Made by a program: the position numbers and the translations under genes. Shown here piece by piece: positions 355-56,630 of a stretch of DNA of 64,000 bases. Within the stretch, counting starts at the first letter, position 1, and each line of letters begins with the position of its first letter. The notes under the pieces are model-generated. The model saw only the letters and a program-made list of their open reading frames with translations. It had not been told where the DNA came from and ran no database searches. Source of the DNA: Candidatus Aenigmatarchaeota archaeon (GTDB lineage Archaea > Aenigmatarchaeota > Aenigmatarchaeia > JACPZZ01); NCBI GenBank assembly GCA_016195275.1, contig JACPZZ010000017.1, positions 21,581-85,580 of the forward strand, written 5' to 3'.

Positions 355-1434
355 TTAGGATTTTGCCTCATCTTGATGCTCCAATGATTTTTGCTGATTT
401 TTTAAGTTCTCAGTCATTTCTGCGTAAACGTATTCGAATATTTTTCCAGGCTCTTCCGCAGGTACGGACTCGTATTTTTTTACGGCATCCTCAACCTTTT
501 TACCCAGTTTTGCAAGCAGCTTTTCTTCGTCAGCCTTTGACCATAATTTTTTTGATTCCATGTATTTTCTCAGCCGTTCTATGGGATCTTTTTTTACCCA
601 TTCGTCCACTTCGGATTTTTTCCTGTACTTCGATGCGTCGTCGGCTGTGGTGTGGTCGCCCATTCTATATGTAAACAATTCTATCAACGTGGGTCCGCCG
701 CCGGAACGGGCTTTTTCCAATGCGCTTTTGGTTGCGCTGTAAACCGCGAAAACGTCGTTGCCGTCGACCTGTACGCCCTCAAAACCGAAAGCGACTGCCT
801 TCTGCGCTATTGTCTGCGACGCGGTTTGTCTGCTTCTTGGCACAGAGATGGCCCATTGGTTGTTCTCGCAAACAAAAACCAAAGGAAGGCTGAACACGCC
901 CGCAAAATTCATAGCCTCGTTGGTGTCGCCTTCCGAAGTCGCCCCGTCTCCGAAATAAACAAGGGACGCGGTTTTTTCGCCCATTATTTTCATAGCCAGC
1001 GCAATGCCTGCTGCGTGCAACGGCTGCGTGCCCACCGGAATTGCAAACGTCAGATCATTTTCCCCGGAAGGAATTTTTTGGCCGCGTTCGTCTCCTCCCC
1101 AGTACTGCAATATCATTTCCATAGACAACCCCCGGAGAATCATGGAAGCGTGCTCCCTGAAAGCCGGTATCATCCAATCGTTTTTACCCAGCGCGTAGGC
1201 TGATGCGATTTGCGCAGCCTCCTGGCCTTTCAATGGCGGATATGTTCCTAAACGGCCCTCGCGCTGCAGTTTTATTGACCGCTCATCGAAAATTCTTGCC
1301 AATACCATCGACTCATAAATTTCTTTTATTTGCTTCTGTGTTAACCCAGGCTGCTCGGCGCATTTTCCGTTTTCATCCAGAATTTGCAGATAATTGACGG
1401 AAAATTTCGCTATTTCCTTTTCCATGATCCACAC
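355..1434 (-). CDS. pdhA: 2-oxoacid (pyruvate) dehydrogenase E1 component alpha subunit, TPP-dependent
   Basis: 359 aa; YRMGDHTTADDASKYR and GDGATSEGD motifs typical of E1 alpha TPP-binding subunits. Confidence 0.85.
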   Translation of the reverse strand: MWIMEKEIAKFSVNYLQILDENGKCAEQPGLTQKQIKEIYESMVLARIFDERSIKLQREGRLGTYPPLKGQEAAQIASAYALGKNDWMIPAFREHASMILRGLSMEMILQYWGGDERGQKIPSGENDLTFAIPVGTQPLHAAGIALAMKIMGEKTASLVYFGDGATSEGDTNEAMNFAGVFSLPLVFVCENNQWAISVPRSRQTASQTIAQKAVAFGFEGVQVDGNDVFAVYSATKSALEKARSGGGPTLIELFTYRMGDHTTADDASKYRKKSEVDEWVKKDPIERLRKYMESKKLWSKADEEKLLAKLGKKVEDAVKKYESVPAEEPGKIFEYVYAEMTENLKNQQKSLEHQDEAKS

Positions 1435-3516: not shown

Positions 3517-4188
3517 ATGGAAGATCACAAATGCCCTGACTGCGGGAAAAATTTTGATTCTGCCGAAGCATTAAACCAGCACAAAGAGGCAAAACACACA
3601 ACCGAAATAAAAGCAGAAGAACAAAAAAATAACGCCAGAAGTTTTAACTTTGACAAAACTAAAGCTGTGCTTTACGCCTTGATTTTAATCGCAGGTGTTG
3701 CAGCGGCTTATGCGATAATGTCATCGCTATCAACCGGTCCGCGCATAGGCAGCGTTGGTTCGACACACGAGCACGTCGATTTCAAGATATACATCGAGGG
3801 CAAGCCGATAGATTTCTCCCAACAGAAATACCAGGTTGCAGCGCAATACGTTCATGTGGAAGGCGGTGTCGGCGGTGTCGTACACAAGCACGCAACAGGC
3901 GTCACGTTCCGCGATTTTCTTAAGACTGTGAACATGGATATGGAAAGCAAATGCTTCAAATCGGACAACAATAAAAATTACTGCGACGAAAACGGCGAAA
4001 CCCTGAAATTCTACCTGAACGGCAAGCTTAATGATAAGTTTGAAAGCTACGAGTTGCGCGATTTGGACAAAGTTTTGATAAGCTACGGCAATGAAACTGA
4101 AGACGAAATCAGACAGCAGCTTGCCGGCATAACCGATTTGGCAAAGATAGAATCCGGAAAACAAGGGGTTCCGAAACGTCTGGGATAA
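3517..4188 (+). CDS. membrane-anchored protein with N-terminal C2H2 zinc finger
   Basis: 223 aa; CPDCGKNFDSAEALNQHKEAKH C2H2 finger, then a hydrophobic helix (AVLYALILIAGVAAAYAIM) and a His-rich outer domain. Confidence 0.5.
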   Translation: MEDHKCPDCGKNFDSAEALNQHKEAKHTTEIKAEEQKNNARSFNFDKTKAVLYALILIAGVAAAYAIMSSLSTGPRIGSVGSTHEHVDFKIYIEGKPIDFSQQKYQVAAQYVHVEGGVGGVVHKHATGVTFRDFLKTVNMDMESKCFKSDNNKNYCDENGETLKFYLNGKLNDKFESYELRDLDKVLISYGNETEDEIRQQLAGITDLAKIESGKQGVPKRLG

Positions 4189-7889: not shown

Positions 7890-8519
7890 ATGGCCGATGG
7901 AATTGTGAAATTGCTTGAATCCGTCAAAAATCCGGAACATCCTATGCTGAAGGTCATGAAAGCTGCCTGCGACAAGGCGAAACTCGCGGATAAAAACGGC
8001 AATTACAAGGTATACTCTGATGAAATCGGGGAAAAATATCCGCCGCATTTCAGCGCAACTATACAGAAACAAGGCGGTAAATATTCGTTCCTGGAAATAA
8101 AGAACATAAGCAACGGGGTCGTGTTTTCGGAAAAGGCTGCCCATAACATAATAATTTCCGAAATGGAACTGTCCAAATATCCGGACCAGATTCCGACAGA
8201 AGACGCTTTCAAAATAGCGCAAAAAATAACAACGCACGGGAAAATAATCCGCCTGGCAAAAGAGGACAGGCAAAAAGCCATGGAGAATGCAAAAAGGATC
8301 GTAGTTACGGAAAAATTGCCGGACATGCCAAAGGCTGTAAAGAATGAAATAATCAATGCAGCGCAATGGGATTTGCTGAGTGACGGCGCCAAATCCCTGA
8401 TAGCCGCGCAATGGGCAAGAAAAATCGGAGGAAAAACAATGGTCGTTGTCAACGACGATGAAACTACAGACAAGGAAAAATTGCGCGCTCTGATATTATA
8501 CATACAGAAGGAAGCCTGA
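7890..8519 (+). CDS. hypothetical protein
   Basis: 209-aa ORF with coding-like composition, no recognisable motif; stop overlaps start of next small ORF. Confidence 0.5.
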   Translation: MADGIVKLLESVKNPEHPMLKVMKAACDKAKLADKNGNYKVYSDEIGEKYPPHFSATIQKQGGKYSFLEIKNISNGVVFSEKAAHNIIISEMELSKYPDQIPTEDAFKIAQKITTHGKIIRLAKEDRQKAMENAKRIVVTEKLPDMPKAVKNEIINAAQWDLLSDGAKSLIAAQWARKIGGKTMVVVNDDETTDKEKLRALILYIQKEA

Positions 8520-8671
8520 TGAGGTCACTGAAACAAAACGATCGCATTGATGTGACCAGGGATTTTCGCAGAAGGGTTTGCCCGGAATGCGGATCCAACA
8601 AACTGATGGAAGACCCTTCGCACGGACGCGCCATGTGCGCAAAATGCGGGCATGTAATAAGGGAATAATAA
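8519..8671 (+). CDS. small zinc-ribbon protein (50 aa)
   Basis: ATG overlaps the upstream stop (TGATG); CPECGSNKL...CAKCGHV two CxxC pairs; below the ORF-track length cutoff. Confidence 0.4.
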
Positions 8672-8672
8672 T

Positions 8673-9215
8673 TTACTTAACCCAGCCTTTCCACTTCACC
8701 GAGCAGCCCACAGGCGTAGTTTCCGTTGTTGCAATCTCCTTGTTGGAAAGTATAGCATCAAGCGATTCCCTTAGGTATTTTCTTTTTGCTGCATTAGCGT
8801 TTTCCCAGTTGTCATCTATCGCGCCGACGTACCTTAACTTTCTGGAAGCATCGAAAACAAAAACATGCGGTGTAACCTTCGCCCCATAAACTCTTGCAAC
8901 GTCCTGAGATTCGTCCCTCAGGTATGGGAAATCAAATCTTTTCTCCTTTGCGCGTATTTTCATGTTTTCAAAGCTGTCTTCCGTGTATTTGGAGTCTTCA
9001 TTCGAATTAATCGCAACAACCTGCACGCCTTTCGCTGCGTAATCTTTTTGCACAGCCATTATTCTACCCTGATACGCCTTTGCATAAGGGCAATGATTGC
9101 ATGTGAAGATAACAACCAGTATTTTTTTGTCTGCAAATTCGCTGGTGGAATGTATTTTGTCATCTACGCCTTTCAGGCCAAATTCTGCAATTGAATCACC
9201 TATTTTCAACGGCAT
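8673..9215 (-). CDS. thioredoxin-fold thiol-disulfide oxidoreductase (redoxin/TlpA-like)
   Basis: CNHCPYAK CxxC motif in a redoxin-like context; start moved to the internal Met (MPLKIG) because the ORF-track start at 9263 would overlap the tRNA-Tyr 3' end. Confidence 0.7.
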   Translation of the reverse strand: MPLKIGDSIAEFGLKGVDDKIHSTSEFADKKILVVIFTCNHCPYAKAYQGRIMAVQKDYAAKGVQVVAINSNEDSKYTEDSFENMKIRAKEKRFDFPYLRDESQDVARVYGAKVTPHVFVFDASRKLRYVGAIDDNWENANAAKRKYLRESLDAILSNKEIATTETTPVGCSVKWKGWVK

Positions 9216-9241
9216 TTCAATTCCTCCAATGATCAAAAATG

Positions 9242-9550
9242 TCCCCCGGGGGCGAGTTTCCAAACGTTTTCTTTTGCCTTAAGGCTTTTCTTTTTCAAAA
9301 GAAAAGGCTTATTTGAACGCCCAACACTCCGGTTTCTGAGCAACGAAAACCGTAAGGTTTCGACGGAAAGCCGAAGCTTTCCGTGCACAGAAAACTAATG
9401 TGTTTTCTGTGTCGTGCATGGAAAATCAACGATTTTCTATGCAATAGCCAAATCTTGATGCAATAGCAGACCGACATATGCATTGCATATGTCAGCTTAT
9501 TACGGCACCAAACTACAGCCGGATACTCTACCGAGTTGAGCTACCGGGGG
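9242..9550 (-). tRNA. tRNA-Tyr(GUA) with two introns (about 179 nt at 37/38 and 56 nt at 59/60)
   Basis: Hand-folded: acceptor CCCCCGG/CCGGGGG with C1:G72 (archaeal Tyr identity), D-arm GCTC-AACTCGGTA-GAGT, anticodon stem TCCGG/CCGGA with loop CTGTAG|intron|A giving anticodon GTA, variable GTGTT, T-stem GGGCG/CGCCC, T-loop TTCAAA|intron|T, discriminator A. Mature length 74 nt. Confidence 0.7.
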
Positions 9551-9610
9551 TTAAACTAAATTCCTATTTACCCGATTACCTTATTAAGTTAATTTTTACC
9601 GGATATTATC

Positions 9611-10243
9611 ATGAATCTGGAATCCTTAAAAATTTTTTATGGTTCAAAAAAGGACGAGATTCACTCGCGCCTTGCGGAATTCTCGGAAAACGGCAAAAAC
9701 GATGAGAAAATTTTCCTCGAGCTTTGTTTTTGCCTGTGTACGCCCCGTTCTTCGGCAATAAAATGCGATCGCATCGTAAGACAGCTCGCAAGCAACAGGC
9801 TCCTTTTCACCGCCAACGCAGACCAGATAAAAAGGTACATGGACGAAATAAGTTTCCCGGATGAAAAATCCCGTTACATAGAAGAGGCCAGAAAAGTGTT
9901 TCTCGAAAGAAAAGTCGATTTCAGGGAATTCTTCAAGAGATTCCTGTCGCCAGCCGGGGCGCGGGAATGGTTTCTGAGAAACGTAAACGGCCTGGGCCGC
10001 AAGGAGGCTTCACATTTCCTGAGGAACATAGGAATGGGCAAAGAGTTCGCAATACTGGACGTCCATATACTGAAAAACCTGAAAGAATTCGGCGTTATAG
10101 AAGAAATTCCTGCCAGGCTCGACGACAAAAAATACCTGGAGATAGAGGCTAAAATGAAAAAATTCTCGGATAGTGCGGGCATACCGATGGACGAGCTTGA
10201 TTTGCTGTTATGGTCAAAGGAAACAGGCTTTATTTTCAAATAA
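9611..10243 (+). CDS. ogg: N-glycosylase/DNA lyase, HhH-GPD superfamily (archaeal Ogg2-type 8-oxoguanine glycosylase)
   Basis: 210 aa; HhH-GPD hairpin GLGRKEASHFLRNIG with catalytic Lys and downstream Asp (AILDVH); size and layout as archaeal Ogg2. Confidence 0.65.
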   Translation: MNLESLKIFYGSKKDEIHSRLAEFSENGKNDEKIFLELCFCLCTPRSSAIKCDRIVRQLASNRLLFTANADQIKRYMDEISFPDEKSRYIEEARKVFLERKVDFREFFKRFLSPAGAREWFLRNVNGLGRKEASHFLRNIGMGKEFAILDVHILKNLKEFGVIEEIPARLDDKKYLEIEAKMKKFSDSAGIPMDELDLLLWSKETGFIFK

Positions 10244-10284
10244 TCATACCGGCATTTGCCGACCAGCGTTTGATTGTTAAAACT

Positions 10285-11733
10285 TCACTCGTCGCGCTTT
10301 ACCCTTGCAACCTCGCCCAATTCGGCATAATTCGAGTCTACTCTCATGGAATTTTCGTTGGCGTCCCTGTATCTCAGGTAAGCCTTTGGCAGCGAAACAG
10401 TTCCCAAAACACCCATAACAGGGGACAATTTATAGGTTATTATCCTCTCTTCCTGGGGCTTGACATCGCCGATCTTCCATATCATTTCCGTGCCCACTGC
10501 AGTCTTCTTTACCAGTGGTTTTAAGGTGTCGTGGTGCGGCAACAGCTTCATCACTGGTGGTATCAGATCGCGTACAACGGCCGCATTCAACGTATTGCGT
10601 GAAGAGTTCTTGACAATTACCGTAACAGCAAATTCCCTTCCTATCTGGGCAGGACCGGAATGAAGCACGCGCTTGTATATCCTGGGCTTCTGGAGTTGTA
10701 TCAGTACAACAACGCTTCCGACAACCAGGAATGCAAGAATAACATAGGCGGGTGTGTAGGAAATCCTGTAAACGAAACTCGCAGTCTCTCCCGGGGTTAA
10801 CTCATCAACGGCCCAGAAATAAGAAACGTCTCCGCCGGACGAGGTCGTATAATTCGGTTTCGTGTCCGGCGATGCCAACCAGGAAACAACGCTGGAAAGG
10901 TCTTCGCGCACGGTTATGTTCCTTCCAACCAAATTACCTTCGTTGGACAATTTTATCGTGACAGTCTTGCCTGAAGATGTTTTTTGCTCGTCCTTTGTCT
11001 GCAATACGTTATAGTAAGTGTTTACAACAAATGAAGTCTGGTTCTGCGATACTTGCTCTCCGCTTTGTGACCTTAATCTGGCAGAAGCCTTGTAATCGCC
11101 GGCCATAGCATGCTTGTCTAACGCAATCGGTTTTTGTACTGTCTTTTCTTCAAGTCCTCCCACTCCCACAGGAACTGTTAATCCGGTCTGCCTGTTTAAC
11201 GGGTCTGTTATTGTTATTTCAAGCGAAAAGCCTTCCAGATCTGTAACAGCCAGGTTCGCGACCTTTATCACCGCGTTTATGTCCGTGCCCGGATTATACG
11301 CAGAATTATCGAGTTTAAAATCCCTGATTACAAGGGGGTATTTGAAATAAACCGTGAAAAAGAATTCCGCAGTGTCGAAAATGGTAGCGTCGTTAGCCGA
11401 GTCTGCGCGCACCACATAACGGTAAACCGACGGGTTTATCCCCACAGGTGGATTAACGGAAAGGTAAACAGTCTCCTCTCCGCCGGCCGGTATGACAACG
11501 CTGCTTTTTTCCAGTGTAACCCAGGAAGAGAATGTTCCCGAATATGACAATAGAAACTGGTCCGCCTTGTTTTCCATATTTTTTATTATAACGGCGTATT
11601 TGGTTGCGGATCCGCTGAAACCTTCGGCCTGTGACGGCGTAACGCTGACATCAACGCCTGCTGCCGAGACAAAAGATGATATGACAACCAGGGAAACAAA
11701 AACTGACAAAAACAGGCTTTTGCGCGCAAACAC
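10285..11733 (-). CDS. secreted/membrane-anchored surface protein, hypothetical
   Basis: 482 aa; N-terminal signal-like segment (LFLSVFVSLVVISSFVSAAG), long Ser/Thr/Val-rich beta-type ectodomain, single TM (AYVILAFLVVGSVVVLI), cytoplasmic tail. Confidence 0.55.
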   Translation of the reverse strand: MFARKSLFLSVFVSLVVISSFVSAAGVDVSVTPSQAEGFSGSATKYAVIIKNMENKADQFLLSYSGTFSSWVTLEKSSVVIPAGGEETVYLSVNPPVGINPSVYRYVVRADSANDATIFDTAEFFFTVYFKYPLVIRDFKLDNSAYNPGTDINAVIKVANLAVTDLEGFSLEITITDPLNRQTGLTVPVGVGGLEEKTVQKPIALDKHAMAGDYKASARLRSQSGEQVSQNQTSFVVNTYYNVLQTKDEQKTSSGKTVTIKLSNEGNLVGRNITVREDLSSVVSWLASPDTKPNYTTSSGGDVSYFWAVDELTPGETASFVYRISYTPAYVILAFLVVGSVVVLIQLQKPRIYKRVLHSGPAQIGREFAVTVIVKNSSRNTLNAAVVRDLIPPVMKLLPHHDTLKPLVKKTAVGTEMIWKIGDVKPQEERIITYKLSPVMGVLGTVSLPKAYLRYRDANENSMRVDSNYAELGEVARVKRDE

Positions 11734-11776
11734 AGAAACACCTATGTTTTCTTGGCTTTTTTGCCATATAAGTTTT

Positions 11777-12769
11777 CTAACCCAGCATCAGGGAAGCCAC
11801 GACAAAATAGATCACTATGGTAAGCATATCCGAAACAACCGTGGCTATCGGACCGCTGCCGATTGCAGGATCGACGCCCATCCTATAGAACCAGTAGACA
11901 ACCGCCAAAGACGAAAACGCGGAAAACATAAAGGAAACGATCATCGAGCTTGCGATCACAAACCCTATGAAAGGCTGGTTCCACAAAATGGAAACCGCAC
12001 CCAAGGTCAGCACTCCGCAAATCAGGCTTATTACCGTGGAAACGAACATCTGCCTTGAAAGGTAATTAAAAAATCTGAGATTTTTCCCAAGTATGGCGAT
12101 ATCACGCACCATGAGCGTCTGCAGTTGTGTTCCGATTGCATCGCTCATATACACCACGGTGGGCAGGAAAAAAGCAAGTATTAAGTGCCTTTCCACGGTT
12201 TTTTCAAGCGCGTTGATAAAAATAGCCGTAATCATCATCGAAACAAGACCGACAAGGAGCCACGGCAACCGGCTTTCAATGCTTTTGTAATACGGAACTT
12301 CAAGCGTGTTTTCAAACTCAAGGTGGGATTTATGAATACCTGCAAAATGCAATATGTCTTCCTGCAAAGACCTGTTGAGTATTGCCATTATCTTATGATT
12401 CGGGACAACGCCCAAGAACCTGCCTTTGCTTACAACAGGCACGTCCTTGATCTTGTGCTTTAAGGCGAGGTCCGAAACCTTTTCCTGGTCTGTTTCCGGC
12501 AATACGGTTATCAGGCTTGTTTTCATCAGCCTGTCGACCCTGGTCTTCCTGGGCGTGGAAAAAAGGTATTTCACTGAAAACACGCCGACGAGTTTTCCCC
12601 TTTTATCGACCACATAAATGTAATCAACCGTTTCCAGGTTTTTGCTTTCAGCGGCAAGCCTTTGGACAACACCTCCGACAGTCTCGCCCAAGCGTGCAAT
12701 GGGAACATTTGTTACCATCCTTCTTCCGGCAGAGTTGTGTGAATATCGCTCAACAGCAGAAGGCTGCAT
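11777..12769 (-). CDS. mgtE: magnesium transporter MgtE (CBS pair plus MgtE membrane domain)
   Basis: 330 aa; CBS-domain region (VVSKGRFLGVV) followed by a 5-TM MgtE-type domain. Confidence 0.8.
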   Translation of the reverse strand: MQPSAVERYSHNSAGRRMVTNVPIARLGETVGGVVQRLAAESKNLETVDYIYVVDKRGKLVGVFSVKYLFSTPRKTRVDRLMKTSLITVLPETDQEKVSDLALKHKIKDVPVVSKGRFLGVVPNHKIMAILNRSLQEDILHFAGIHKSHLEFENTLEVPYYKSIESRLPWLLVGLVSMMITAIFINALEKTVERHLILAFFLPTVVYMSDAIGTQLQTLMVRDIAILGKNLRFFNYLSRQMFVSTVISLICGVLTLGAVSILWNQPFIGFVIASSMIVSFMFSAFSSLAVVYWFYRMGVDPAIGSGPIATVVSDMLTIVIYFVVASLMLG

Positions 12770-12798
12770 GTGAATAATTTGATTTTCGGGATAAAAAA

Positions 12799-12931
12799 GG
12801 TGGGGTTAGGGTGATTTGAACACCCATATGAAGCTCTTTCTAAACCTTTCTTTTTCCCTTGAGGCTTTTTCTTTGGAAAGAAAAAGGCTCACCCAAAGCT
12901 CCTATGCTAAACCAGGTTACATCATAACCCC
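12799..12931 (-). tRNA. tRNA-Pro(UGG) with 56-nt canonical-position intron
   Basis: Hand-folded: acceptor GGGGTTA/TAACCCC, D-stem ATGT/GCAT, anticodon stem GGAGC/GCTTC, loop TTTGGG|intron|A giving anticodon TGG, variable ATAT, T-arm GGGTG-TTCAAAT-CACCC, discriminator A then CC. Confidence 0.7.
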
Positions 12932-13222
12932 GATTGTAAAATCAGATTGTCTGCATTACTTAAAAATAGATGTTTACCCTTCCCTGAACAGCCACTTAGG
13001 CAGCGGGACAGGTGAGAACTGGTTTTTCTTCGAAAGCTTCAATTGATATCGCGCATTTGAATGCGAATGCCTAATCTGCGCGAGTAACCGCATAGTCCTT
13101 ATGTACCGTGTCGCATCCGCAAGATTAGCCACAATATATTATTATCAGAGGTGGTTAAAATTTTTAACTATTTGGCTTGTTAACCGCTACAATTTGTCTG
13201 TAACGATACAAATGACTGCCAA

Positions 13223-13705
13223 CTACGATTCTATCGTTGCACCCTCAAATAATCTTTCTATCTGCCGTGCTATCGTGGACAACCTCAGGTTTATCCCGGT
13301 TTGATCAAAAACCGCTTTAGCTATGTCTTCAGGCAAGGTCGGACTATCCTGATATTGTTCAAACAACTCGGTTATCATACTGTCTATAAGAGGACGAATT
13401 TTAAGATACGATACGATATAAGCCTGACGCGATTCCTGAACTCCAGGCCTATCCCTATACTTTCGGTAGGATTGCAAGCGCCGCGCTCGGGCTTCTGGCG
13501 TTAATTCTTCCACCCTGTCTTTTCTACGCCTCTCCTCAAGATATCCGGGCGTCAATCTGCGGTATACAGTAAACATCCTGACTCCGTAAATATTGGCAAT
13601 GCTTTTGTGTATCTGAGCGCGCGACATGCCCGTTGATGAATATCGCCTTTCAAGATCAGCCCATTCCTCTACCATTGAATCTGGGATTTTCAAACCAGTC
13701 GGCAT
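13223..13705 (-). CDS. hypothetical HTH-containing protein
   Basis: 160 aa; putative HTH (MSRAQIHKSIANIYGVRMFTVYRRL); basic; located between tRNA-Pro and a toxin-antitoxin patch. Confidence 0.45.
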   Translation of the reverse strand: MPTGLKIPDSMVEEWADLERRYSSTGMSRAQIHKSIANIYGVRMFTVYRRLTPGYLEERRRKDRVEELTPEARARRLQSYRKYRDRPGVQESRQAYIVSYLKIRPLIDSMITELFEQYQDSPTLPEDIAKAVFDQTGINLRLSTIARQIERLFEGATIES

Positions 13706-13738
13706 AACCGCTTTTGGGAATAATAGAAATTTAAGGCC

Positions 13739-13882
13739 ATGTCATTGTTTTTGGATGGCAACAAACGCACAGCTTACGTTCTAGCCAAAACTCTGATACT
13801 TCAGAATGGGGTAGAACTGAAACCAAACTGCGAAAATGAAGGCAGAGCTTCCACAAAATCTTGTAAAGTGGTGTGTTGATAT
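13739..13882 (+). pseudogene. Doc (Fic/Doc family) toxin remnant, 47-aa fragment
   Basis: Translation MSLFLDGNKRTAYVLAKTLILQNGVELKPNCENEG parallels the HYFWDGNKRTAYVIAKTILL core of the intact Doc gene 100 bp downstream; lacks the N-terminal half. Confidence 0.5.
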
Positions 13883-13957
13883 ACGATATCGTTCACTTAG
13901 ATATAGAGAAACGTTGTCTACCACACTACAATTTACGGAAACGCCAAATAGGTTTTA

Positions 13958-14398
13958 GTGATTCGGATGGTTGTGACGAAAGAAGAAACGGAAAATCTGG
14001 TCAAAGTCTTTATAGACATACACAATGACATACTTCAAGTAACAGGACAACGTTCTAACCCTGAATTGCACGAAGAAGTACCAGCTGGCGGAGAATCGGG
14101 TGTAAGAGATCCTGGAGGACTACATGTATTGGCTTACAAAATACTATCGTTAGAAAGCGATCCAACAAAAATAACAGCTGATGTAGCGACTGAAGCATTG
14201 TATGATATCGCAACAAAACACTACTTTTGGGACGGGAACAAAAGAACTGCATACGTAATTGCAAAAACCATATTGTTAAGGGAGGACATGGTCTTGCTGC
14301 CTATTTATAAAGATGCTCTCGAATTTATTATCAGGGTAGCTGACAAAAAGATTCCCAAAAAAGAAATAAAAACATGGATTGAAGGTATGATCTTGTAA
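13958..14398 (+). CDS. doc: Doc (death-on-curing) toxin, Fic/Doc family
   Basis: 146 aa; HYFWDGNKRTAYV Fic/Doc active-site motif (HxFxDGNKR); no obvious Phd antitoxin upstream. Confidence 0.75.
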   Translation: MIRMVVTKEETENLVKVFIDIHNDILQVTGQRSNPELHEEVPAGGESGVRDPGGLHVLAYKILSLESDPTKITADVATEALYDIATKHYFWDGNKRTAYVIAKTILLREDMVLLPIYKDALEFIIRVADKKIPKKEIKTWIEGMIL

Positions 14399-14678
14399 AA
14401 GGGTGTTAGGGTGACTATTAAAGACATTAAAAGATGGCGTCAACAAGCAAAGAAGGTTATAGAAGAAGATATAGAGCTACTCAGGGAACTGGCGAAACGT
14501 TGATATTAATTCTAGATAGCCTCAGGCGGGCTCGGGAGAACAGTCAATAACACCAACTGTTGGAATATTATTTTTTAACACGATATATTAGCTTTTACAA
14601 CTTACACACAATCCATATGCTTTGAATATGCGGCACTATCCAGCCTTTTGCATCGTCTTTGAATATTTGTTTCCTGTA

Positions 14679-15098
14679 TTAACCTTTCAACAAGCCCGTT
14701 TTAATTTCTTTAATTATTCTTTTGCACTTTTCTATTGCGTGCAAAGCAGTCTCAAAATCCATTCTTTTGCCATAATAGGTCAGAGAATTTCGTTTGTATC
14801 TTACATCGCCGAAAAGGACATACAAATCAGTTCTTTTGAGAACATCCCTGATATAATAGCCAAGGCATACGTGGTTGCTTATCTTGTAACCATTTGATAA
14901 AACAATTGCCTGCAACATTTCCATAATTGAAGTATAATAATCCTCGAAAACGAAATTGCAGTTTTTCTCGTTTATTTCGCTTGTTAGTTTTATCCTTTCG
15001 GCTGCGGTTTCAACCAATGATTTTGCTCTTGCTCTATCTGGAGAAATTTTTACCGCTGTGTTCCCCTCTACGCAGTCGTTCCACGAGCTTTCTTTCAT
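14679..15098 (-). CDS. HEPN-domain protein (toxin component of HEPN/MNT module)
   Basis: 139 aa; helical HEPN-like protein immediately downstream of and overlapping (4 nt) the MNT gene; R...H-type motif near the C-terminus. Confidence 0.65.
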   Translation of the reverse strand: MKESSWNDCVEGNTAVKISPDRARAKSLVETAAERIKLTSEINEKNCNFVFEDYYTSIMEMLQAIVLSNGYKISNHVCLGYYIRDVLKRTDLYVLFGDVRYKRNSLTYYGKRMDFETALHAIEKCKRIIKEIKTGLLKG

Positions 15099-15628
15099 TT
15101 GAACACCTCAATAAATCCATTAAGCACAATACCGTTTACTATGTTGTTCACCAAACCGGTGTTTCCTATCTCCCTGATATTTTTATGCCGAAAAACTTGT
15201 ATCTTTCTTTGCAGAATCTTTTCAAATTTCTCAACGTTAATGTTTTTTTTGGAAGGCGTTTCCAAGTATAAATCTATGTCGCTGTTTTCTGTATCCTCCC
15301 CTTTCGAGTAAGAACCGAACAAAATTATAGTCGGGTTGCTTAATTCGTCTCTCAGCCAATCAACAATTCCGGATGCATGGATCTGTTTTAGATTAAAAAG
15401 CTTTTTCTCCATCAAGAAGTCCTCGTTCGTCCTGTTGGAAGTGTAAAAGACGACGTCGCCCGTCTTTGTTGTCGTTAGTATCCCCTCTTCCTTCAAATCC
15501 TTGCAATATCTGATCACAGAAGGCAACGGCAGTTTCAGTGTTTTTTCTATCTGCCTTACCCTCAATTTAGAGCCCGGATTGATAAAAAAATAACCCCTGA
15601 TCGTTTCCTTGATATCTTTTCTTATCAT
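15095..15628 (-). CDS. minimal nucleotidyltransferase (MNT) with N-terminal wHTH (antitoxin component of HEPN/MNT module)
   Basis: 177 aa; LFGSYSKGEDTENSDIDL nucleotidyltransferase motif (GS...DxD); N-terminal winged-helix-like region. Confidence 0.75.
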   Translation of the reverse strand: MIRKDIKETIRGYFFINPGSKLRVRQIEKTLKLPLPSVIRYCKDLKEEGILTTTKTGDVVFYTSNRTNEDFLMEKKLFNLKQIHASGIVDWLRDELSNPTIILFGSYSKGEDTENSDIDLYLETPSKKNINVEKFEKILQRKIQVFRHKNIREIGNTGLVNNIVNGIVLNGFIEVFK

Positions 15629-15727
15629 ATGATAATTTATATTATCAATTGATACTTAAAGTTATCATTTATGATCCGACCCAACGATAACACAGATTTT
15701 ATCCGGCGTTAGCCTTGGTAAAATAGG

Positions 15728-15748
15728 TTCTTGAATAAGCCTCAGGCG
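15728..15748. repeat. attL: 21-bp direct repeat agcctcaggcgagaattgaac (copy of tRNA-Thr 3' end)
   Basis: Identical 21-mer occurs at 56631-56651, where it forms the T-loop/acceptor 3' end of tRNA-Thr. Confidence 0.75.
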
Positions 15749-15850
15749 AGAATTGAACAATTGTCTACCTTACGTGCGTACTTGCTTGAGCAAGTCGCGT
15801 AGGAGGCGAGGTAGAGTCATCATTCCTATTGGCGCTGTCGGCTCATAAGT

Positions 15851-16597
15851 TTGATGCTCAAACCCTTGCATCCACAAAGCGGCAATCGTCCAAGACCGGA
15901 AGCGACGCCTACCAGCCAGGTAGGAGATGACGGTTCGAATCCGCCTTGCCGCATTTCTCTGCGTCTCTGTTCTGACAGGCAGGACTTCGAGGCGTTCCGC
16001 TGGATCATCGACACGTACCACACTTACAAGCCTTGGAAGCCTTCTCCCGGCAGGAAGATCTGCTGGCTTATTGAACGCGAAGGCGAGACCATCGGCTCCA
16101 TCGCAGTCCATAGCGCCGTGCTCACAATCAAGCCGAGAGAAGACTTCATTGGATGGGACCAGAGACAAAAGCTTGTCAACTTGAACAAAGTAGCCAACAA
16201 CTATCGTTTTGCACTCATTGAGCGGGGCGTTGGCTCTCGTGTGCTATCCGAGCTGGAACGTGAGGCCAAACGGGAATGGAAACGGAAATACGGCGATCCG
16301 CTCGTCCTGTTGGAAACTTTTGTCCAGCCGCCCTATGAAGGCACATCGTACAAAGCCGCGAACTGGACCTACATCGGTATGACCAAGGGCTTTGCTGTGA
16401 GGCGCGCCCCCGTCTCATTGTGGAAACGCGCGGGGGGCGAGAGAAAGAAGTTGTGGGAGTCCGATCCACATGCTGCGGCGAAACTGTACGCGGGCTGGAA
16501 TGGCGGCCAGCTTGTCAAAGTCACTCCGACTCCGAAGAAGCACATCTTCGCGCGCCCGCTGCATCGGTATTGGAGACGAGAGTTGCTGCGCGTCTAA
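15851..16597 (+). CDS. hypothetical GNAT-like protein (possibly DUF4338-like), likely 5'-truncated or with mis-assigned start
   Basis: 248-aa ORF; ERGVGSRVLSELEREA resembles GNAT motif A (RxxGxG); the annotated N-terminus overlaps a tRNA-like sequence (15879-15953) and has no in-frame alternative start until far downstream. Confidence 0.4.
   Translation: MMLKPLHPQSGNRPRPEATPTSQVGDDGSNPPCRISLRLCSDRQDFEAFRWIIDTYHTYKPWKPSPGRKICWLIEREGETIGSIAVHSAVLTIKPREDFIGWDQRQKLVNLNKVANNYRFALIERGVGSRVLSELEREAKREWKRKYGDPLVLLETFVQPPYEGTSYKAANWTYIGMTKGFAVRRAPVSLWKRAGGERKKLWESDPHAAAKLYAGWNGGQLVKVTPTPKKHIFARPLHRYWRRELLRV
15879..15953 (+). other. degenerate tRNA-like sequence (Gly-GCC-like) just inside attL
   Basis: 7-bp perfect acceptor stem GCGGCAA/TTGCCGC, anticodon hairpin CCTAC-CAGCCAG-GTAGG, T-arm GACGG-TTCGAAT-CCGCC, discriminator A; mismatches in the D and T stems and A33 suggest a pseudo-tRNA or element-borne tRNA. 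Confidence 0.45.
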
Positions 16598-23286: not shown

Positions 23287-24996
23287 TTACCTGGCTGACA
23301 ACTTCAGCGGCAGGAAACTAACCGCATCACTCTTCACTTCAGTTAAAGTTGCGTCCATTCTATCAGGATAGTGTGAACTCAATTGATCCCTTGCCAATAT
23401 AGGCAGGATTGCTTCCAGCTCAACACTATCTCCATCTATCCAAACCTTAAGCTGGAGAGTTTCTAATAAAAGACGCCTGGCTTCAAAGCTGAATTCCTGC
23501 AATCTCCTTAACACCAGATTACAGAGTGATTTGATGCCTTCTTCGTCTAATTGCCATCGTCGCAGGTTCTTGAGACGTTGTTCAAACACCTCTTTCTCGC
23601 TGAGGAGGCGCTTGCGTTCAATTTCAATACTCGCTTTCTCTCTTTGCAGCAAGTCGTCATCGAATTCTCCAAACGAGTAAAGCCGTATTAGGCGTACCTC
23701 CCTATTGCGAAGCTTGTCAAGCATAGCATCAATTGTCTTGAGATCCTCTTCTGCTGAATCTCCGGACAAAAGGGTCTCCTGCCTTCTTCTTAGCAGCTCA
23801 TAGACAAAATCAGGGTTGGTCATGGCTTCTTCGAGTCGTTCCCAAACCAATCTCTCTAATCTTGCGGCACTATAGGTACGGTTCCTGCACTTTGTAGGGA
23901 AGTCGATGTGTTGTTTGGCTGCACAAGCATAGCTGGGAACCTTCTTCTTCGGCATTCCCCAATATCTTCTACCGCACCATTTACAGTATACGTAGCCGCT
24001 AAACAGGTATTGATGCTTGCTGTTTCTTTTGGCTAGTTCGCTATTCCTCTGAAGCTGCTTCTGGACACTGTTGAACAGTTCTTCAGTGATAATAGCTGGT
24101 GTTGCACCAGGAACTTCGATCCATTCGTCCCGCGGCCTCCAGGCCCTGCTGGTTAGTAGGCGCGAGGGATTTGACTTCAAACGCCTCTTTGGTTCTGCTG
24201 GCGTCATGGTGAATGCGTATGTCTTGCCTGTGTAAGCAGGGTTGGTGAGAACCCTGTGGACTGTGCTCTTTATCCATGTTTCCTTGCCTGAGGGACTTGG
24301 AATCCCAAGATCTCGTAGTCTCCGAACAATAGCGTTGAGAGTCAACCCTTCTTCCACAAGCCAACTGTATATTTTCTTCACGACCTCGGCGTTCTCTGGA
24401 ACGATTGCTCTGATTCCTTCTCCGTCTCCTCTGCCTGGAATATAGCGATACCCATAGGGAGAGGTATGTCCAGCGCTAGGGATTTTACCGCGCAAGGCCC
24501 GCATCTTCTTGCCGCGCGTTGTGCGCTCAAGGATTTTCTCCTTTTCTATCTGGGCAGCGTAGCCAATGACATAACGGATTAGCTGACCTTCAGGGGTATT
24601 ATCCAAAGGCTCAGTCACGAAGATCAACTCAACCTTTCTCTTTTCGCACTCCTCAGCAATGATAGCAATATGTATTGGATTCCTCGCCAGCCTGTCAGTG
24701 GAGTGTACAATGAACGCATCAATCTTCTTCTCCTTAAGAAGAAGGCGCGCGTGCATCAGTAATGGCCTGTCCAGGGTCGCGCCTGAATAATCCTCCTTAA
24801 AGATGAACTCGTCTGGGACCTCGTATCCTTTTGCCTTTGCCAGCGCCAAGCATCGCTCAAGCTGCGTCTCCAGGCTCGTGCCTTCTTCCTTTTGTCTCGT
24901 GGTGCTTACACGAGTGTAAATTGCCGCGGTTTTCATGCGTGCCTCCTTGCCGAAGTTCTCAATGGGTTTACTTCGGCTCTTGTTTTTCCAGATCAC
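23287..24996 (-). CDS. large serine recombinase (resolvase/invertase catalytic domain plus recombinase domain plus zinc ribbon plus coiled coil)
   Basis: 569 aa; N-terminal AAIYTRVSTTRQ catalytic-Ser motif; CKWCGRRY...CAAK zinc ribbon; long C-terminal coiled coil typical of large serine recombinases. Confidence 0.85.
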   Translation of the reverse strand: MIWKNKSRSKPIENFGKEARMKTAAIYTRVSTTRQKEEGTSLETQLERCLALAKAKGYEVPDEFIFKEDYSGATLDRPLLMHARLLLKEKKIDAFIVHSTDRLARNPIHIAIIAEECEKRKVELIFVTEPLDNTPEGQLIRYVIGYAAQIEKEKILERTTRGKKMRALRGKIPSAGHTSPYGYRYIPGRGDGEGIRAIVPENAEVVKKIYSWLVEEGLTLNAIVRRLRDLGIPSPSGKETWIKSTVHRVLTNPAYTGKTYAFTMTPAEPKRRLKSNPSRLLTSRAWRPRDEWIEVPGATPAIITEELFNSVQKQLQRNSELAKRNSKHQYLFSGYVYCKWCGRRYWGMPKKKVPSYACAAKQHIDFPTKCRNRTYSAARLERLVWERLEEAMTNPDFVYELLRRRQETLLSGDSAEEDLKTIDAMLDKLRNREVRLIRLYSFGEFDDDLLQREKASIEIERKRLLSEKEVFEQRLKNLRRWQLDEEGIKSLCNLVLRRLQEFSFEARRLLLETLQLKVWIDGDSVELEAILPILARDQLSSHYPDRMDATLTEVKSDAVSFLPLKLSAR

Positions 24997-25540
24997 TCAA
25001 GAGCAGTCTCGCCAACTTATCCAAAACAGGATCGAGTCCAACAAATGCGCGTGCTTCACCCATGCGCAAAACCTCTTGCGGCTCCGCTACCCTGTCAACA
25101 CTATGCACCGAGTCCGGCTCATCGAGGACCCGTTCATCTTCGCCTGGCTCCTGGAAAAGCGCAGGAAGCTCTCCTTCTTCGCTTTCCGCTCTCCCAACAC
25201 GTCTGGGTCCAGCTTTCTGTTCATTTTCTCTATGGAGGCCCTGGGATAACTGGGCATCCTCGTCTGCTTCACGACTTCCCTCAAGCTTGGGCTTCGGGGT
25301 AGGCTGGGTGGGACAGCCTACGGCATCAGCCCGTTCCTCGTCAATAGGGATAGCAGTATTGCTTTCTCTTTCTACTTCCACTTTCTCAGAGGAACTCTCC
25401 CCGGCTGGCCAGAGGGAAAGTTGCATAGCCCTGATTTGCTTCTTGCCAAGGCGTTGTGCCCGGCTTTCAAGCTGGCCCTCCTCTGTTTTCCCGACTCGCC
25501 GCCGGGTGTCCGTCTTGCGCTCTTTCATTCTCTGTTTCAC
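24968..25540 (-). CDS. hypothetical acidic protein
   Basis: 190-aa Glu/Arg-rich ORF immediately upstream of, and overlapping, the serine recombinase start; low complexity. Confidence 0.35.
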   Translation of the reverse strand: MKQRMKERKTDTRRRVGKTEEGQLESRAQRLGKKQIRAMQLSLWPAGESSSEKVEVERESNTAIPIDEERADAVGCPTQPTPKPKLEGSREADEDAQLSQGLHRENEQKAGPRRVGRAESEEGELPALFQEPGEDERVLDEPDSVHSVDRVAEPQEVLRMGEARAFVGLDPVLDKLARLLLSDLEKQEPK

Positions 25541-25557
25541 GCCGACCTGTTTCTGGT

Positions 25558-26830
25558 TTAGCCCTCATTAAGGCGTTGCCAATTACACTGCGTCACTGAA
25601 ACGAAATAGAACGCAGTCAGGGGTCTTGGGGAAGGCTTGCCTGCGCATAGGGCGATGGATGCCGGACCGGAGCGATTCGCAGAGAAGCGAGGGAAGAAAG
25701 GCATCGCTCGTTTGCGCTCTCCACATCGGACGACACTGTGGCGATGCCCTGACACAAATCGGCGGCGGTCTAAGCCCGACGCCATAAATGAATGTGAGCC
25801 GCATTGCGACCCAGAGTCTTTGTTCCGATCATTAACCATGTCTCTTACATCTTTCCGACCTGTTTCATCCCTGAAACTGATCGCGTAAGGGGATGGGTTC
25901 GGGAAACCGCGAGAGGTTTTCCGATAGGGCTTCCGAGTGAGCGCAAGCGAGCTCGCCGAGCGGAGCGAGGGGAGAAGCCCGTGAGGGTTACGGGAGCGCA
26001 GTCTCCCGATTACAAAATGGGCGGCGTCCGCCCCAATTACGCCACGGTTAGAGGGCAACAGGTGTCCCCACCGTTGCCTCTCTTTCCGATACCAGGCGTC
26101 ATCGATTGAGCCTGCAATCGCTCTGGCGATGTCCAGGCCGAACTTGCTGTCGAACCGGACGACCTGAACCTCGTCGGGTTCGTCCCAGTACAGTCGGAAT
26201 TCCTCCTCTTGGAAATCGACCAGCACTTTGGGAAGTCCTCCCTTCGATTTCGTTTGTCTGCAATTTCACAGACACCACCTCCACACACCTATTCGCGAAT
26301 CCCCGCTTGAAGCTTTCATCAGAAAGATTCAAGAACGGGGATGAGCGGTCACTTGTGGAGGTGGTGTGAAATACAGACTGAAATTGCAAGAGGGGAAGGT
26401 TTGCGAACCTTGCCCGGTCTTCCACGTCCTCGCCCGCTATCCCTTCGCCTTCCGCCCAGAGGATACGATCCGAGTAGCCCGCACCATACGAGGGATACTT
26501 TGGCTCGCGTATCCGGTAGGAGCTTCTCTCACGCCTATACGAGAGCCACAGGTTCTCGATCAGGTGGTAGGCTCTTGGCCGCCACATTCGGTATCCGGTC
26601 ATTCCGTTCGCCCTGCCTTCCTCAGCTCGCGCAGCAGTAGCTTTCCTTTCGGGCTGTCGAACGGCACGAACTCAAGAGGTCTGTCCCAACAGAACTTTCG
26701 GAACGTCCTGAGCCGAAAGTCCACGTTGTACCCATTCCACTTCAGAAACCGCCTCATACGCTCACCCCTGTTTAGGGAGAGGAACGGGGCTTCTTCCCCT
26801 TCCTTCTTTTCTTTTCAATCAACCAGATGC
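25558..26830 (-). other. decayed coding region (broken ORFs, frameshifted fragments)
   Basis: Minus-strand translations give conserved-looking stretches (MRRFLKWNGYNVDFRLRTFRKF...; MWRPRAYHLIENLWLSYRRERSSY...; MLVDFQEEEFRLYWDEPDEVQVVRF...) interrupted by stops or frame changes; also contains a degenerate copy of the island repeat at 25891-25928. Confidence 0.35.
25891..25928 (+). repeat. island repeat element, degenerate copy f
   Basis: gggttcgggaaaccgcgagaggttttccgatagg aligns to the CGGGAAACCG...AGGTTTCCGG core of copy a. Confidence 0.4.
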
Positions 26831-26833
26831 GGG

Positions 26834-27319
26834 TCATGCTTTCACCGCCGCTGCGGATTGCGAAGAAGAGGGCGCATCCTCCTTCTCCGTCTCCACCGTG
26901 CTACAGGTGGATGGCTTGGCATTTACTTTGCCGAGCAGCCACTCGGCGAAGTTGTCAGCCAACTTCTTCACACCGTCCGATGACAGCCCAGTCGGTGCCC
27001 AGCACGTTGCTGCGGCTTTCAAAGCGACTGAGTAGACCATCAAGGTCTCCCGTTCGTAGAGGCCGAAGCCCCTTGGAACGGTGTCCGACAGCTTGGCAGT
27101 CGGGGTCTCCACGACCTCAATCGCCTTAATGTTTCGGAACTTCCCGTTCTCCACATAGGCGATGGCCACCTGCTGTCCTTCTTTCACCGGACACTCTTTC
27201 TCGAAGGCGCTGTAATACTCGCCCCCGACCCTGACGGCGTACCGGTCTGGGTTTCTCCAGACCAACTCCACGCGGCCTGCCGTCAGCCGCATCCCCCTTT
27301 TTTCTTCTTTCCCTGACAT
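26834..27319 (-). CDS. hypothetical protein
   Basis: 161-aa ORF with coding-like composition (MSGKEEKRGMRLTAGRVELVWRNPDRYAVRVGGEYY...). Confidence 0.4.
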   Translation of the reverse strand: MSGKEEKRGMRLTAGRVELVWRNPDRYAVRVGGEYYSAFEKECPVKEGQQVAIAYVENGKFRNIKAIEVVETPTAKLSDTVPRGFGLYERETLMVYSVALKAAATCWAPTGLSSDGVKKLADNFAEWLLGKVNAKPSTCSTVETEKEDAPSSSQSAAAVKA

Positions 27320-27450
27320 GTTCTCTCAACTCCTTGGGATGGCTTCTTTTCGAGCCACCCCTGCTTTTTCGTTTACTTCAGTCGTGGTCGGCGCAGGCGA
27401 GGCGACCCTCACACTGAGTGCAGAGAGGAGAAACCGAGAATATGCCCAGC

Positions 27451-27521
27451 GGGGCTTATCTCGGTTTAGCCCGCCTGCGCGAGGGAAGGCCGAGCACGGG
27501 AAACCGTAGGTTTCCGGTGCC
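27451..27521 (+). repeat. island repeat element copy a (extended about 70 nt; core 27481-27521)
   Basis: ggggcttatctcggtttagccc...gagggaaggccgagcacgggaaaccgtaggtttccggtgcc; the core is nested in an outer inverted repeat CCTGCGCG...CGCGgagCGCAGG. Confidence 0.6.
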
Positions 27522-27739
27522 TTCGCGCGGAGCGCAGGTTGACCTCTAGCTGACTCTTCATCCCTCTTTCTCCGAATTGAGGAACCTGACAAGGGTGGAC
27601 GGCGCGACTTTTTCCCTGTCCGCTCTCCCAAGCTCACTCCTTACGAGTTCCTCGATCTGCCCGAGATGGGTCTTGCTCTCGCTCAGGACGATCACGCTCG
27701 CGCAGCCCAGGTTTTGGATGTTCCTCTGGTTCTCTCTTG

Positions 27740-29899: not shown

Positions 29900-30255
29900 T
29901 TCCAGCCCGCGTTAAGGAACCCCGGGTGCCCGCATTCAGCGCAGACCGGGCGATGGCACTTCCCGCATTCCTTGCTGGTCGCGCAATCTCCGCACATGAC
30001 ATGCAGGCACCTGTAGCAGGCGCACGTCGCGATCTCGGGAGATCGAAAGACCTTTTGGCACCCTTTGCAAAGCCCGGCGCGTATGGTTGTGGTGAAGCCG
30101 TTCTTCGCTGTGGGAGCCTCGACCTCGAAGACTCGCTGGCCCAATTTCACGTGGTCGAGCAGGATCCAGGCCGAATTGCCACCAGCAGACTGCGGGTCTG
30201 CTGGAAAGTTGGGCCGCATCCCCGTACCCCCCTGGCCGGACTCAGTAGCACTCAT
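29878..30255 (-). CDS. Cys-rich small protein, paralog 1 (6 CxxC pairs)
   Basis: 125 aa; N-terminal VKLGQRVFEVEAPTAKNGFTTTIRAGLCKGC then CxxC repeats; paralogous to the next gene (VKVGQKVFEVEEPSARNGFTRTIKAGICKGC); overlaps the ATPase start. Confidence 0.55.
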   Translation of the reverse strand: MSATESGQGGTGMRPNFPADPQSAGGNSAWILLDHVKLGQRVFEVEAPTAKNGFTTTIRAGLCKGCQKVFRSPEIATCACYRCLHVMCGDCATSKECGKCHRPVCAECGHPGFLNAGWNCKGRCD

Positions 30256-31017: not shown

Positions 31018-31027
31018 CGTTCACCTC

Positions 31028-31354: not shown

Positions 31355-31364
31355 CCTTCACCTC

Positions 31365-31598: not shown

Positions 31599-31608
31599 TC
31601 CGAACCGT

Positions 31609-56582: not shown

Positions 56583-56630
56583 GCAATTACATGGGTCAGT
56601 CTGCTAATAAAAGATATACACTTGTTCAAA

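Follow-up and report, generated by a model that had tools for sequence, protein, structure and literature searches.

The question raised by this locus is how a gene for a tRNA of 74 nt comes to span 309 nt, and what the hairpins lodged in it are. The gene is a tRNA-Tyr(GUA) gene located on the minus strand, at 9550-9242, of a 64,000-nt stretch of archaeal DNA, which is called the window below. An earlier description made from the letters alone (the sequence-only reading) had identified a tRNA-Tyr(GUA) with a C1:G72 pair, split by two introns, one of them a long and structured anticodon-loop intron, and had given 309 nt for the gene against 74 nt for the mature tRNA; ARAGORN and the related genomes agree with the identification, and the coordinates agree as well. 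To this we add that the gene is on the minus strand, that the length of the long intron appears to come from nested insertions, and that its four-hairpin block and the second intron belong to families found at other tRNA genes. The account that we consider probable, without being sure of it, is that of a working two-intron tRNA-Tyr(GUA) in which one intron has grown by insertions, the inserted cassettes being passengers.

The host is a tiny groundwater archaeon, known as a Candidatus Aenigmarchaeota (DPANN) metagenome-assembled genome (MAG). This identity rests on the flanking N-glycosylase/DNA lyase (Ogg, 9611-10243), for which a Candidatus Aenigmarchaeota MAG has a protein of 100% identity; the next-closest relatives of the protein are from other Aenigmarchaeota (69-75% identity). 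The comparison set was made of the window and of contigs from five relatives (L001, L002, L005, L014 and L016), i.e. six genomes. In the five relatives the gene order is that of the window, and the split tRNA-Tyr is opposite in strand to ogg.

The split tRNA-Tyr gene

All five relatives carry the split tRNA-Tyr at the syntenic place, with both introns at matching positions. Once spliced, the tRNA is 96% identical over the six genomes, and no sequence has lost any of the 21 cloverleaf pairs (5 distinct sequences, 100% of the cells paired). Two pairs of the anticodon stem, 27:43 and 28:42, are doubly changed (U-A/C-G and C-G/U-A). Because these pairs bridge exons across intron 1, selection must act on the spliced molecule, and such compensatory changes point to a maintained gene and not to a pseudogene. 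The cloverleaf that the sequence-only reading expected of the exons was obtained in full with ARAGORN, which calls the spliced 74-mer as tRNA-Tyr(gta) with all four stems intact, and for three of the four stems with RNAfold (acceptor, anticodon and T stems at -34.8 kcal/mol, together with a shortened 4-bp D-region helix). From these comparisons we are confident that the tRNA is real and has two introns that are spliced out.

Exon 1 (9550-9513, minus strand; CCCCCGG UA GCUC AACUCGGUA GAGU A UCCGG CUGUAG) corresponds to tRNA positions 1-37, i.e. the acceptor 5' strand CCCCCGG, the D arm, the anticodon-stem 5' strand UCCGG and the loop residues CUGUAG. It is followed by intron 1 (9512-9334, minus strand), of 179 nt, at the canonical position 37/38. 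Exon 2 (9333-9312, minus strand; positions 38-59) brings A38, the anticodon-stem 3' strand CCGGA, the variable loop GUGUU, the T-stem 5' strand GGGCG and the T-loop residues UUCAAA. Intron 2 (9311-9256, minus strand), of 56 nt, interrupts the T loop at 59/60, and exon 3 (9255-9242, minus strand; positions 60-73) completes the molecule with U60, the T-stem 3' strand CGCCC, the acceptor 3' strand CCGGGGG and the discriminator A73. The resulting anticodon loop is CUGUAGA, the first pair is C1:G72, and CCA is not encoded. A putative TATA-like promoter element, CTTAATAAGG (9579-9588, minus strand), is found ~30-38 nt upstream of position 1, and the relatives have TTATATAAGC at the matching place; a run of five T (9235-9239, minus strand) directly past A73 is a likely archaeal terminator. 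Both the promoter-like box and the T-run are present in the window and in the relatives.

The unspliced native gene was matched neither by default ARAGORN nor by the Rfam tRNA model at its gathering threshold. With introns enabled, ARAGORN recovered it after deletion of intron 2 and reported the 179-nt anticodon-loop intron. The silence of the standard finders could be taken as the sign of a tRNA-Tyr pseudogene, broken by insertions while an intact copy elsewhere does the work. The same could be said of the 5' junction of intron 1, which is not a strict bulge-helix-bulge (BHB), and, since 64 kb of the genome were inspected, a second tRNA-Tyr may exist elsewhere. However, default scans that miss the gene are of no use for judging whether it is real, and the exons, with no broken pair in six genomes and with compensation across intron 1, do not look like those of a decaying gene. 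Moreover, the BHB of intron 2 covaries, the insertions avoid every splice-site element, and the promoter-like box and T-run are retained. Finally, introns are present in three of the four tRNA genes of the window (Tyr, Pro and Thr, the exception being tRNA-Gly(GCC) at 15879-15953), so that disruption is the norm here. The pseudogene, which the sequence-only reading had itself put forward as the finding that would undo it, is in our opinion very improbable, the gene being syntenic in six genomes, conserved and endowed with compensatory changes.

A long intron may also arise from a MAG assembly artefact or from a chimera, the source being a MAG and hairpin-rich repeats being able to mislead assemblers. 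Here, a 421-nt region including both introns was found 100% identical in two independent Logan assemblies made from other sequencing runs (SRR12113409 and SRR12113410), which argues that the locus is not an assembly artefact, and a shorter insert is present at the matching site in L014 and L016. The likelihood of an artefact is, in our view, negligible.

Two open reading frames (ORFs), 9295-9483 (minus strand) and 9478-9705 (plus strand), lie inside or over the tRNA gene. They had been judged almost certainly spurious from the start, and we agree because the underlying intron sequence is absent or different in the relatives.

Splice sites of the two introns

According to the BHB rule, a 4-bp helix stands between two 3-nt bulges that hold the splice sites, with further helices on either side and with cutting after the second nucleotide of the bulge, and relaxed forms (hBH, HBh') are known; in canonical introns positions 34-35 pair with the intron, and the non-canonical intron sites already listed include 59/60 and 29/30 (PMC4090602). 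Intron 2 appears, from its sequence in the six genomes, to lie in a near-canonical BHB of the hBHBh' form, with h = GGGCG/CGCCC and h' = AAGC/GUUU. The central helix H, UUCA/GGAA, has three Watson-Crick pairs (U54-A, U55-A and C56-G) and a non-standard fourth pair, A57.G, which is invariant in the six genomes. The bulges are AA|U (A58 A59|U) and A(C/U)|U, the latter being AC|U60 in the window. Over the six genomes h is 100% paired, H keeps three of its four pairs, and in h' pairing reaches 86%, three of the pairs being doubly compensated. The geometry of the bulges puts the intron at 59/60; since there is a T at both of its ends, cutting at 60/61 would give an identical product.

Intron 1 is better described as a probable relaxed canonical intron, of bulge-helix-loop type, this description combining sequence comparison and modelled folds. 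At its 3' splice site (9333-9339, minus strand), a UCAG sequence pairs with C32 U33 G34 and forms a U35.U mismatch; then comes the 3-nt bulge AA|A38. UCAG or UCGG, and the AAA, are kept in the six genomes. The site fits the hBH form, with the anticodon stem, the AA|A38 bulge, and the pairs C32-G, U33-A (U.G in L001 and L002) and G34-C. The 5' site, A36 G37|U, lies between the H helix, closed by U35.U, and an intron hairpin (9454-9511, minus strand) with arms UUGGUGC (9511-9505) and GCAUCAA(G) (9461-9454). This hairpin covaries: in the relatives it is UUGGCAC/GUGCCAA with a small loop, versus UUGGUGC/GCAUCAA in the window. The linker to H is 11-14 nt long; because the 3' strand of the hairpin is not contiguous with the H strand, the 5' site falls in a junction loop and not in a bulge.

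Two points go against a fully working gene here. Intron 1 does not have its 5' site in the textbook 3-nt bulge between two contiguous helices, and in several genomes the minimum free energy (MFE) structure either has A36-G37-U(i1) paired or ties up the anticodon stem's 5' strand. A conserved segment, AUUUGGC (9447-9453, minus strand), can pair with GGCUG of the anticodon stem and loop, as found with RNAalifold on the three short introns and in the MFE structure of the window pre-tRNA; a second competing pairing joins A36-G37-U to GCU. The energy gap between the MFE and the splice-competent conformer is 0.2-3.6 kcal/mol in five of the six genomes and 8.5 kcal/mol in L001. In L014 this conformer is about the MFE structure itself (0.2 kcal/mol above), with stem, bulge and H helix unchanged.

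Two other arrangements were considered and set aside. A strict hBHBh' for intron 1, in which its 5' end would pair just upstream of UCAG, forms in none of the six genomes. An 'inner intron' delimited by a repeat of UUUGG would leave no better BHB, as reasoned rather than computed.

In DPANN archaea, an EndA with an extra L3 loop goes with more disrupted tRNA genes (Kaneta et al., PMC5829648). The course of events in the present case would be as follows. The gene would be transcribed from its own TATA-type promoter into a precursor of ~310 nt; EndA would remove both introns, intron 1 being cut at its 3' site in a stem/3-nt bulge/helix and at its 5' site in an open junction of the relaxed bulge-helix-loop kind; an RtcB-type ligase would join the exons, and the 179-nt intron 1 would be released, probably as a circle.

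Insertions in intron 1 and the four-hairpin module

The length of intron 1 varies widely, i.e. 44 nt in L001, 45 nt in L005, 49 nt in L002, 96 nt in L016, 99 nt in L014 and 179 nt in the window (ARAGORN value). When the sequences were aligned by eye, with the conserved ends as anchors (UUUGG...CCAAGAUUUGG ... GUUGCUCAGAA), the window intron could be decomposed, by comparison with the relatives, into a core of ~45 nt and two insertions. The first (9504-9462, minus strand) is a block of 43 nt that sits at the tip of the intron hairpin, in its apical loop, and holds a 21-nt palindrome, GACATATGCA-AT-GCATATGTC (9493-9473, minus strand). The second (9341-9441, minus strand), of ~101 nt, is located between AUUUGGC and GUUGCUCAGAA, past the intron hairpin and ahead of the splice helix's 3' strand, and constitutes a four-hairpin module. 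In L014 and L016, a two-hairpin insert (H1 and an H4-like hairpin) occupies the exact site of the four hairpins of the window. Both insertions spare every splice-site element and, in the predicted folds, each inserted hairpin forms locally in the intron multiloop. Judging from the alignment, intron 1 very likely owes its length to nested insertions into an ancestral intron of ~45 nt, which would have gained the 43-nt palindrome block and the 101-nt cassette with its splice geometry left untouched.

All on the minus strand, the hairpins of the module are H1 (9442-9416), CAUAGAAAAUC-nnn-GAUUUUCYAUG; H2 (9411-9386), CACAGAAAAC-loop-GUUUUCUGUG; H3 (9384-9363), CGGAAAGC-UUCG-GCUUUCCG, with a UUCG loop; and H4 (9362-9344), CGAAACC-loop-GGUUUUCG. 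They abut; the linkers between them, CACGA, CA and U, are fixed, and UUG forms a tail. The units are perfect hairpins of ~22-27 nt which have in common the arm consensus CAYRGAAAAYC. The structural detail of the sequence-only reading is recovered: its gacatatgca / tgcatatgtc hairpin is the palindrome at 9493-9473, its cggaaagc-ttcg-gctttccg hairpin stands at 9384-9363, and both copies of the direct repeat gctattgcat are present.

The covariance search of the intron against Rfam that it had proposed was carried out. With Rfam 15, no family, those of group I/II introns and known archaeal sRNAs included, matched at its gathering score over 9100-9700, and a permissive scan of that region gave matches at chance level only (mir-5880, STAXI and Phe leader), the best being that of a miRNA model on the palindrome (E = 0.022; 23.9 bits versus a cut-off of 97 bits), and nothing besides tRNAs was found with Rfam in L001, L002 and L005. 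As had been said before, intron 1 has no C/D-box pair: no C box (RTGATGA) was found even with one mismatch allowed, and there is a single CTGA. H/ACA features were not seen by inspection either, the module being made of four continuous stems of 6-11 bp, without internal loops or G.A tandems.

The module was also found outside intron 1. In L005 it is missing from the intron and present just past the T-run, 3' of tRNA-Tyr. When 185,579 species genomes were scanned with a pattern, five stretches were returned, which correspond to two Aenigmatarchaeota genomes (one match each) and three chance bacterial matches; of the two stretches returned by a scan of metagenome contigs, one was true, namely an intergenic copy in L012. 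Viral contigs scanned with two patterns gave no match. In L011, the second of the two genomes, the module lies 12 nt 3' of tRNA-Val(UAC), ahead of tRNA-Ala(GGC), and the L012 copy is peculiar in that the 3' arm of its H3 encloses two extra nested hairpins. R1, a covariance model built on the module, which scores 125 bits for the window copy, gave one full-length match in sense orientation per positive locus in ~260 kb of related DNA, with weaker scores for the two-hairpin forms. It also gave partial or antisense sub-matches at those same places and weak single-hairpin matches, e.g. in intron 2 of L001 and upstream of the tRNA-Tyr of L014. With R1, no second copy was found in the rest of the window, and no copy in 89 kb from more distant Aenigmarchaeota or at the tRNA-Val/tRNA-Ala locus of the L001 genome, which has hairpins of other families instead. 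The Ogg loci of more distant Aenigmarchaeota (L018-L023, L026 and L027) have no synteny with the window, and the module was not found in them.

The four full copies are 86% identical, and the four-helix structure holds over all of them (97.2% of the cells paired, with three doubly compensated pairs). At two of the pairs, most or all copies have G.U, which is workable on the tRNA-sense strand only. Variation is concentrated in the loops (13 variable columns out of 18) as compared with stems and linkers (13 out of 83; Fisher p = 5e-6), and 10 of the 12 flank columns vary; the UUCG loop of H3 is invariant. In the five tRNA-linked copies, the module always has the orientation of the host or adjacent tRNA. 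For the copies in L005, L011, L012, L014 and L016, neither a target-site duplication nor a fixed flank is visible.

What the cassettes are for, if anything, is the less certain part of our account. We incline to the view that they are passengers, selfish or near-neutral and mobile at the DNA level, without function for the host. The cassette and the intron-2 family described below would be short hairpin elements accommodated in the discarded parts of tRNA transcripts, i.e. introns, 5' leaders, 3' trailers and spacers, and tolerated there because processing cuts them out. Four observations favour passengers: several unrelated hairpin families occupy similar sites, the number of hairpins varies, hairpins nest in hairpins, and insertions come and go between close relatives.

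Four features weigh against passengers. The module is low-copy, the exact pattern matching once in each of two genomes and the covariance model once per locus; conservation of its stems and linkers goes with scrambled loops and flanks (p = 5e-6); its G.U pairs fit the tRNA-sense strand only; and its orientation relative to the tRNA is constant in five copies. All four speak for a new host-functional small RNA which would ride on tRNA transcription and processing and be freed here from the intron, probably as a circle, and elsewhere from trailers. To them can be added the extent of pairing (97.2%) with its three doubly compensated pairs, the sharp boundaries of conservation, the invariant UUCG of H3 and a TATA-like box, rather than a tRNA, that appears to precede the L012 copy. 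Yet the module has neither C/D nor H/ACA features and almost no single strand for guiding, it matches no Rfam family, and its hairpins number two (L014, L016), four or six (L012). The two tRNA loci of the L001 genome that were examined lack it, the tRNA-Val/tRNA-Ala spacer having unrelated hairpins, and it was not found in the 89 kb from more distant Aenigmarchaeota. The covariation statistics are thin because only four full copies are known, and perfect hairpins can be made without selection by template-switch mutation. All in all, we regard a host-functional RNA as the less likely reading but as a serious rival, and keep to passengers as the working explanation.

Two further candidates were rejected. 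The module could have been a leader of a 201-aa ORF of L005, but the neighbours of the other copies are unrelated (tRNA-Ala in L011, a toxin-antitoxin pair in L012). A processing stem or BHB shared by the free-standing copies was also looked for, and an enclosing helix was found only in L011.

As for these neighbours, the 201-aa ORF (L005 612-1217, minus strand) has no Pfam family and lies between tRNA-Tyr with its module and an AhpC-like gene; the window and L002 have no such ORF there, and it has the look of an inserted gene. The L012 pair (833-1344, plus strand) consists of AbrB/SpoVT-like and RelE/ParE-like small ORFs, assigned by eye, and is convergent to the module copy.

Single hairpins were also encountered away from the module. 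L014 (7330-7385, minus strand) and L012 (1456-1501) share two hairpins, ACGGUUUGC...GCAAACCGU and CAUAGGAAAU...AUUUCCUAUG, which lie upstream of the tRNA-Tyr promoter in the former and are nested in H3 of the module in the latter; this difference of place suggests that individual hairpins move on their own. In L001 (5772-5795), intron 2 of tRNA-Tyr (~155 nt) holds a hairpin, CAUGGAAAAC-AGAA-GUUUUCCAUG, of the H1/H2 arm family, which suggests that both tRNA-Tyr introns accept hairpins of this type.

The intron-2 family and known systems

Intron 2 has relatives in other tRNA genes. A tRNA-Pro(UGG) gene of the window (12931-12801, minus strand), missed by default ARAGORN and by Rfam, has a 56-nt intron at 37/38 (12891-12836) that resembles intron 2 of tRNA-Tyr (z = 10.7, with none of 500 shuffles reaching the score). 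The two introns share the 3' end GUUU-RGAA-AN|, which builds a BHB against exon UUC/UUU. In L011 and L028, the intron of tRNA-Ala(GGC) belongs to the same family (z = 13.4-13.6; 0 of 500 shuffles), and a sub-variant links intron 2 of the L016 tRNA-Tyr to the tRNA-Ala intron of L030 (z = 10.2; 0 of 500 shuffles). At position 37/38, the family is present in tRNA-Pro (window, L001, L005) and in tRNA-Ala (L011, L028, L030); the orthologous tRNA-Pro gene is intronless in L002 and L014. Similar introns in different isoacceptor tRNAs and at different positions are what defines a family of transposed introns, and such a distribution was found here. The family also exists outside introns, between the TATA box and tRNA-Tyr in L016 and directly 3' of tRNA-Ala in L030. 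The length of intron 2 in tRNA-Tyr goes from 45 nt (L016) through 56 nt (window) to more than 100 nt, the longer versions arising through tandem copies of a AAAAGAAAAGCCUUAAGG-type unit. The third intron-containing tRNA gene of the window, tRNA-Thr(GGU) (56630-56732, minus strand), has a 30-nt intron (56703-56674) in the anticodon stem, at ~29/30.

Work by Marck and Grosjean in 2003 and by Sugahara in 2008 reportedly placed archaeal tRNA introns at canonical and non-canonical sites. Archaeal tRNA genes with several BHB introns occur in Thermoproteales, Thaumarchaeota and some DPANN (reviewed in PMC4090602 and PMC5829648). The present gene resembles them in having a canonical and a T-loop intron, the latter at a listed hot spot (59/60) and in a BHB, the former probably in a relaxed form of that motif, and in being missed by simple finders; it differs from them by the size of its canonical intron, 179 nt, by the fact that this length is traceable to datable nested insertions, and by its lineage, the Aenigmarchaeota being outside the surveys that we found in the literature. 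The literature searched gave nothing usable on the documented maximum length of archaeal tRNA introns. Typical ones are of roughly 12-100 nt, and 179 nt is well beyond that range.

Transposition of introns among tRNA genes has been described in Thermoproteales (PMC4090602). The presence/absence polymorphism of the tRNA-Pro intron among close relatives is similar to what is seen there, but the phylum is different, the sequence family is unrelated, and the intron-2 family is also found in a tRNA leader (L016) and a tRNA trailer (L030). The latter copies point to insertion at the DNA level near tRNA genes, and not to BHB-to-BHB transfer only.

A structured RNA in a tRNA intron has a precedent in the tRNA-Trp intron of Haloferax volcanii, which is ~105 nt long and encodes a box C/D guide RNA. 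Both are long introns located at the canonical position, and both include a discrete, conserved and structured RNA module. Unlike the Haloferax one, the module described here has no C/D boxes, no guide-like single strands and no Rfam match; it consists of four near-perfect hairpins and can also sit outside the intron. Among short palindromic repeats, the bacterial REP and BIME, and the archaeal and cyanobacterial PATEs, which are MITE-like and derived from IS200/IS605, are comparable: the cassettes, too, are perfect hairpins with a common arm consensus, arranged in tandem, nested (L012) and found at varying non-coding loci. They differ from these repeats by a very low copy number, by the fact that neither a target-site duplication nor a conserved flanking tetranucleotide was seen, and by their strict tie to tRNA transcription units.

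Multi-intron tRNAs, T-loop introns, intron families common to several tRNAs and intron-hosted RNA (haloarchaeal tRNA-Trp) are kinds already known. New are the lineage, the size of the canonical intron together with its traceable history, a conserved four-hairpin module without family assignment that has tRNA transcription units as its only known habitat, and element families that exist both as introns and as flanking inserts. A more far-reaching interpretation, which we offer as tentative, is that the cassettes form a tRNA-gene-targeting system of elements that makes, lengthens and loses BHB introns, the module being in addition a selectively maintained new class of structured RNA, released here as a circular intron.

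As default tRNA finders miss both tRNA-Tyr and the intron-containing tRNA-Pro, DPANN MAGs such as this one would be scored as lacking these tRNAs, which skews estimates of completeness and claims of a 'reduced translation machinery'. The mechanism of archaeal tRNA intron transposition is stated to be unknown (PMC4090602). Close relatives with intronic, flanking and absent copies, together with the growth of intron 1 from 45 to 179 nt, constitute a comparative system for the gain and enlargement of BHB introns. The locus would gain in importance should the module turn out to be a stable functional RNA, or should the elements account for the spread of BHB introns.

A few additional features of the region were noted. 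An element of ~40 nt is conserved downstream of tRNA-Ala (L011 ~1170-1215, L028 ~243-283 and L030 ~3888-3925); its motifs (CCGAUGAAGA ... CUGAGG) resemble C/D boxes, its terminal stem is GCG...CGC, and it is possibly a short RNA of box C/D-like or K-turn type. Another hairpin family (GAAGCAUACCG ... CGGUAUGCUUC; CUGAAAC ... GUUUCAG) flanks tRNA-Val, tRNA-Ala and tRNA-Thr (L030 3300-3660, L005 7434-7514 and window ~56740-56780), and stable hairpins generally crowd the tRNA leaders and spacers of this clade. Lastly, the G+C content of the window is 0.53-0.59 across ~24-32 kb (24000-32000), versus 0.40-0.47 near the tRNA-Tyr locus (8000-16000), and the former segment is possibly of foreign composition.

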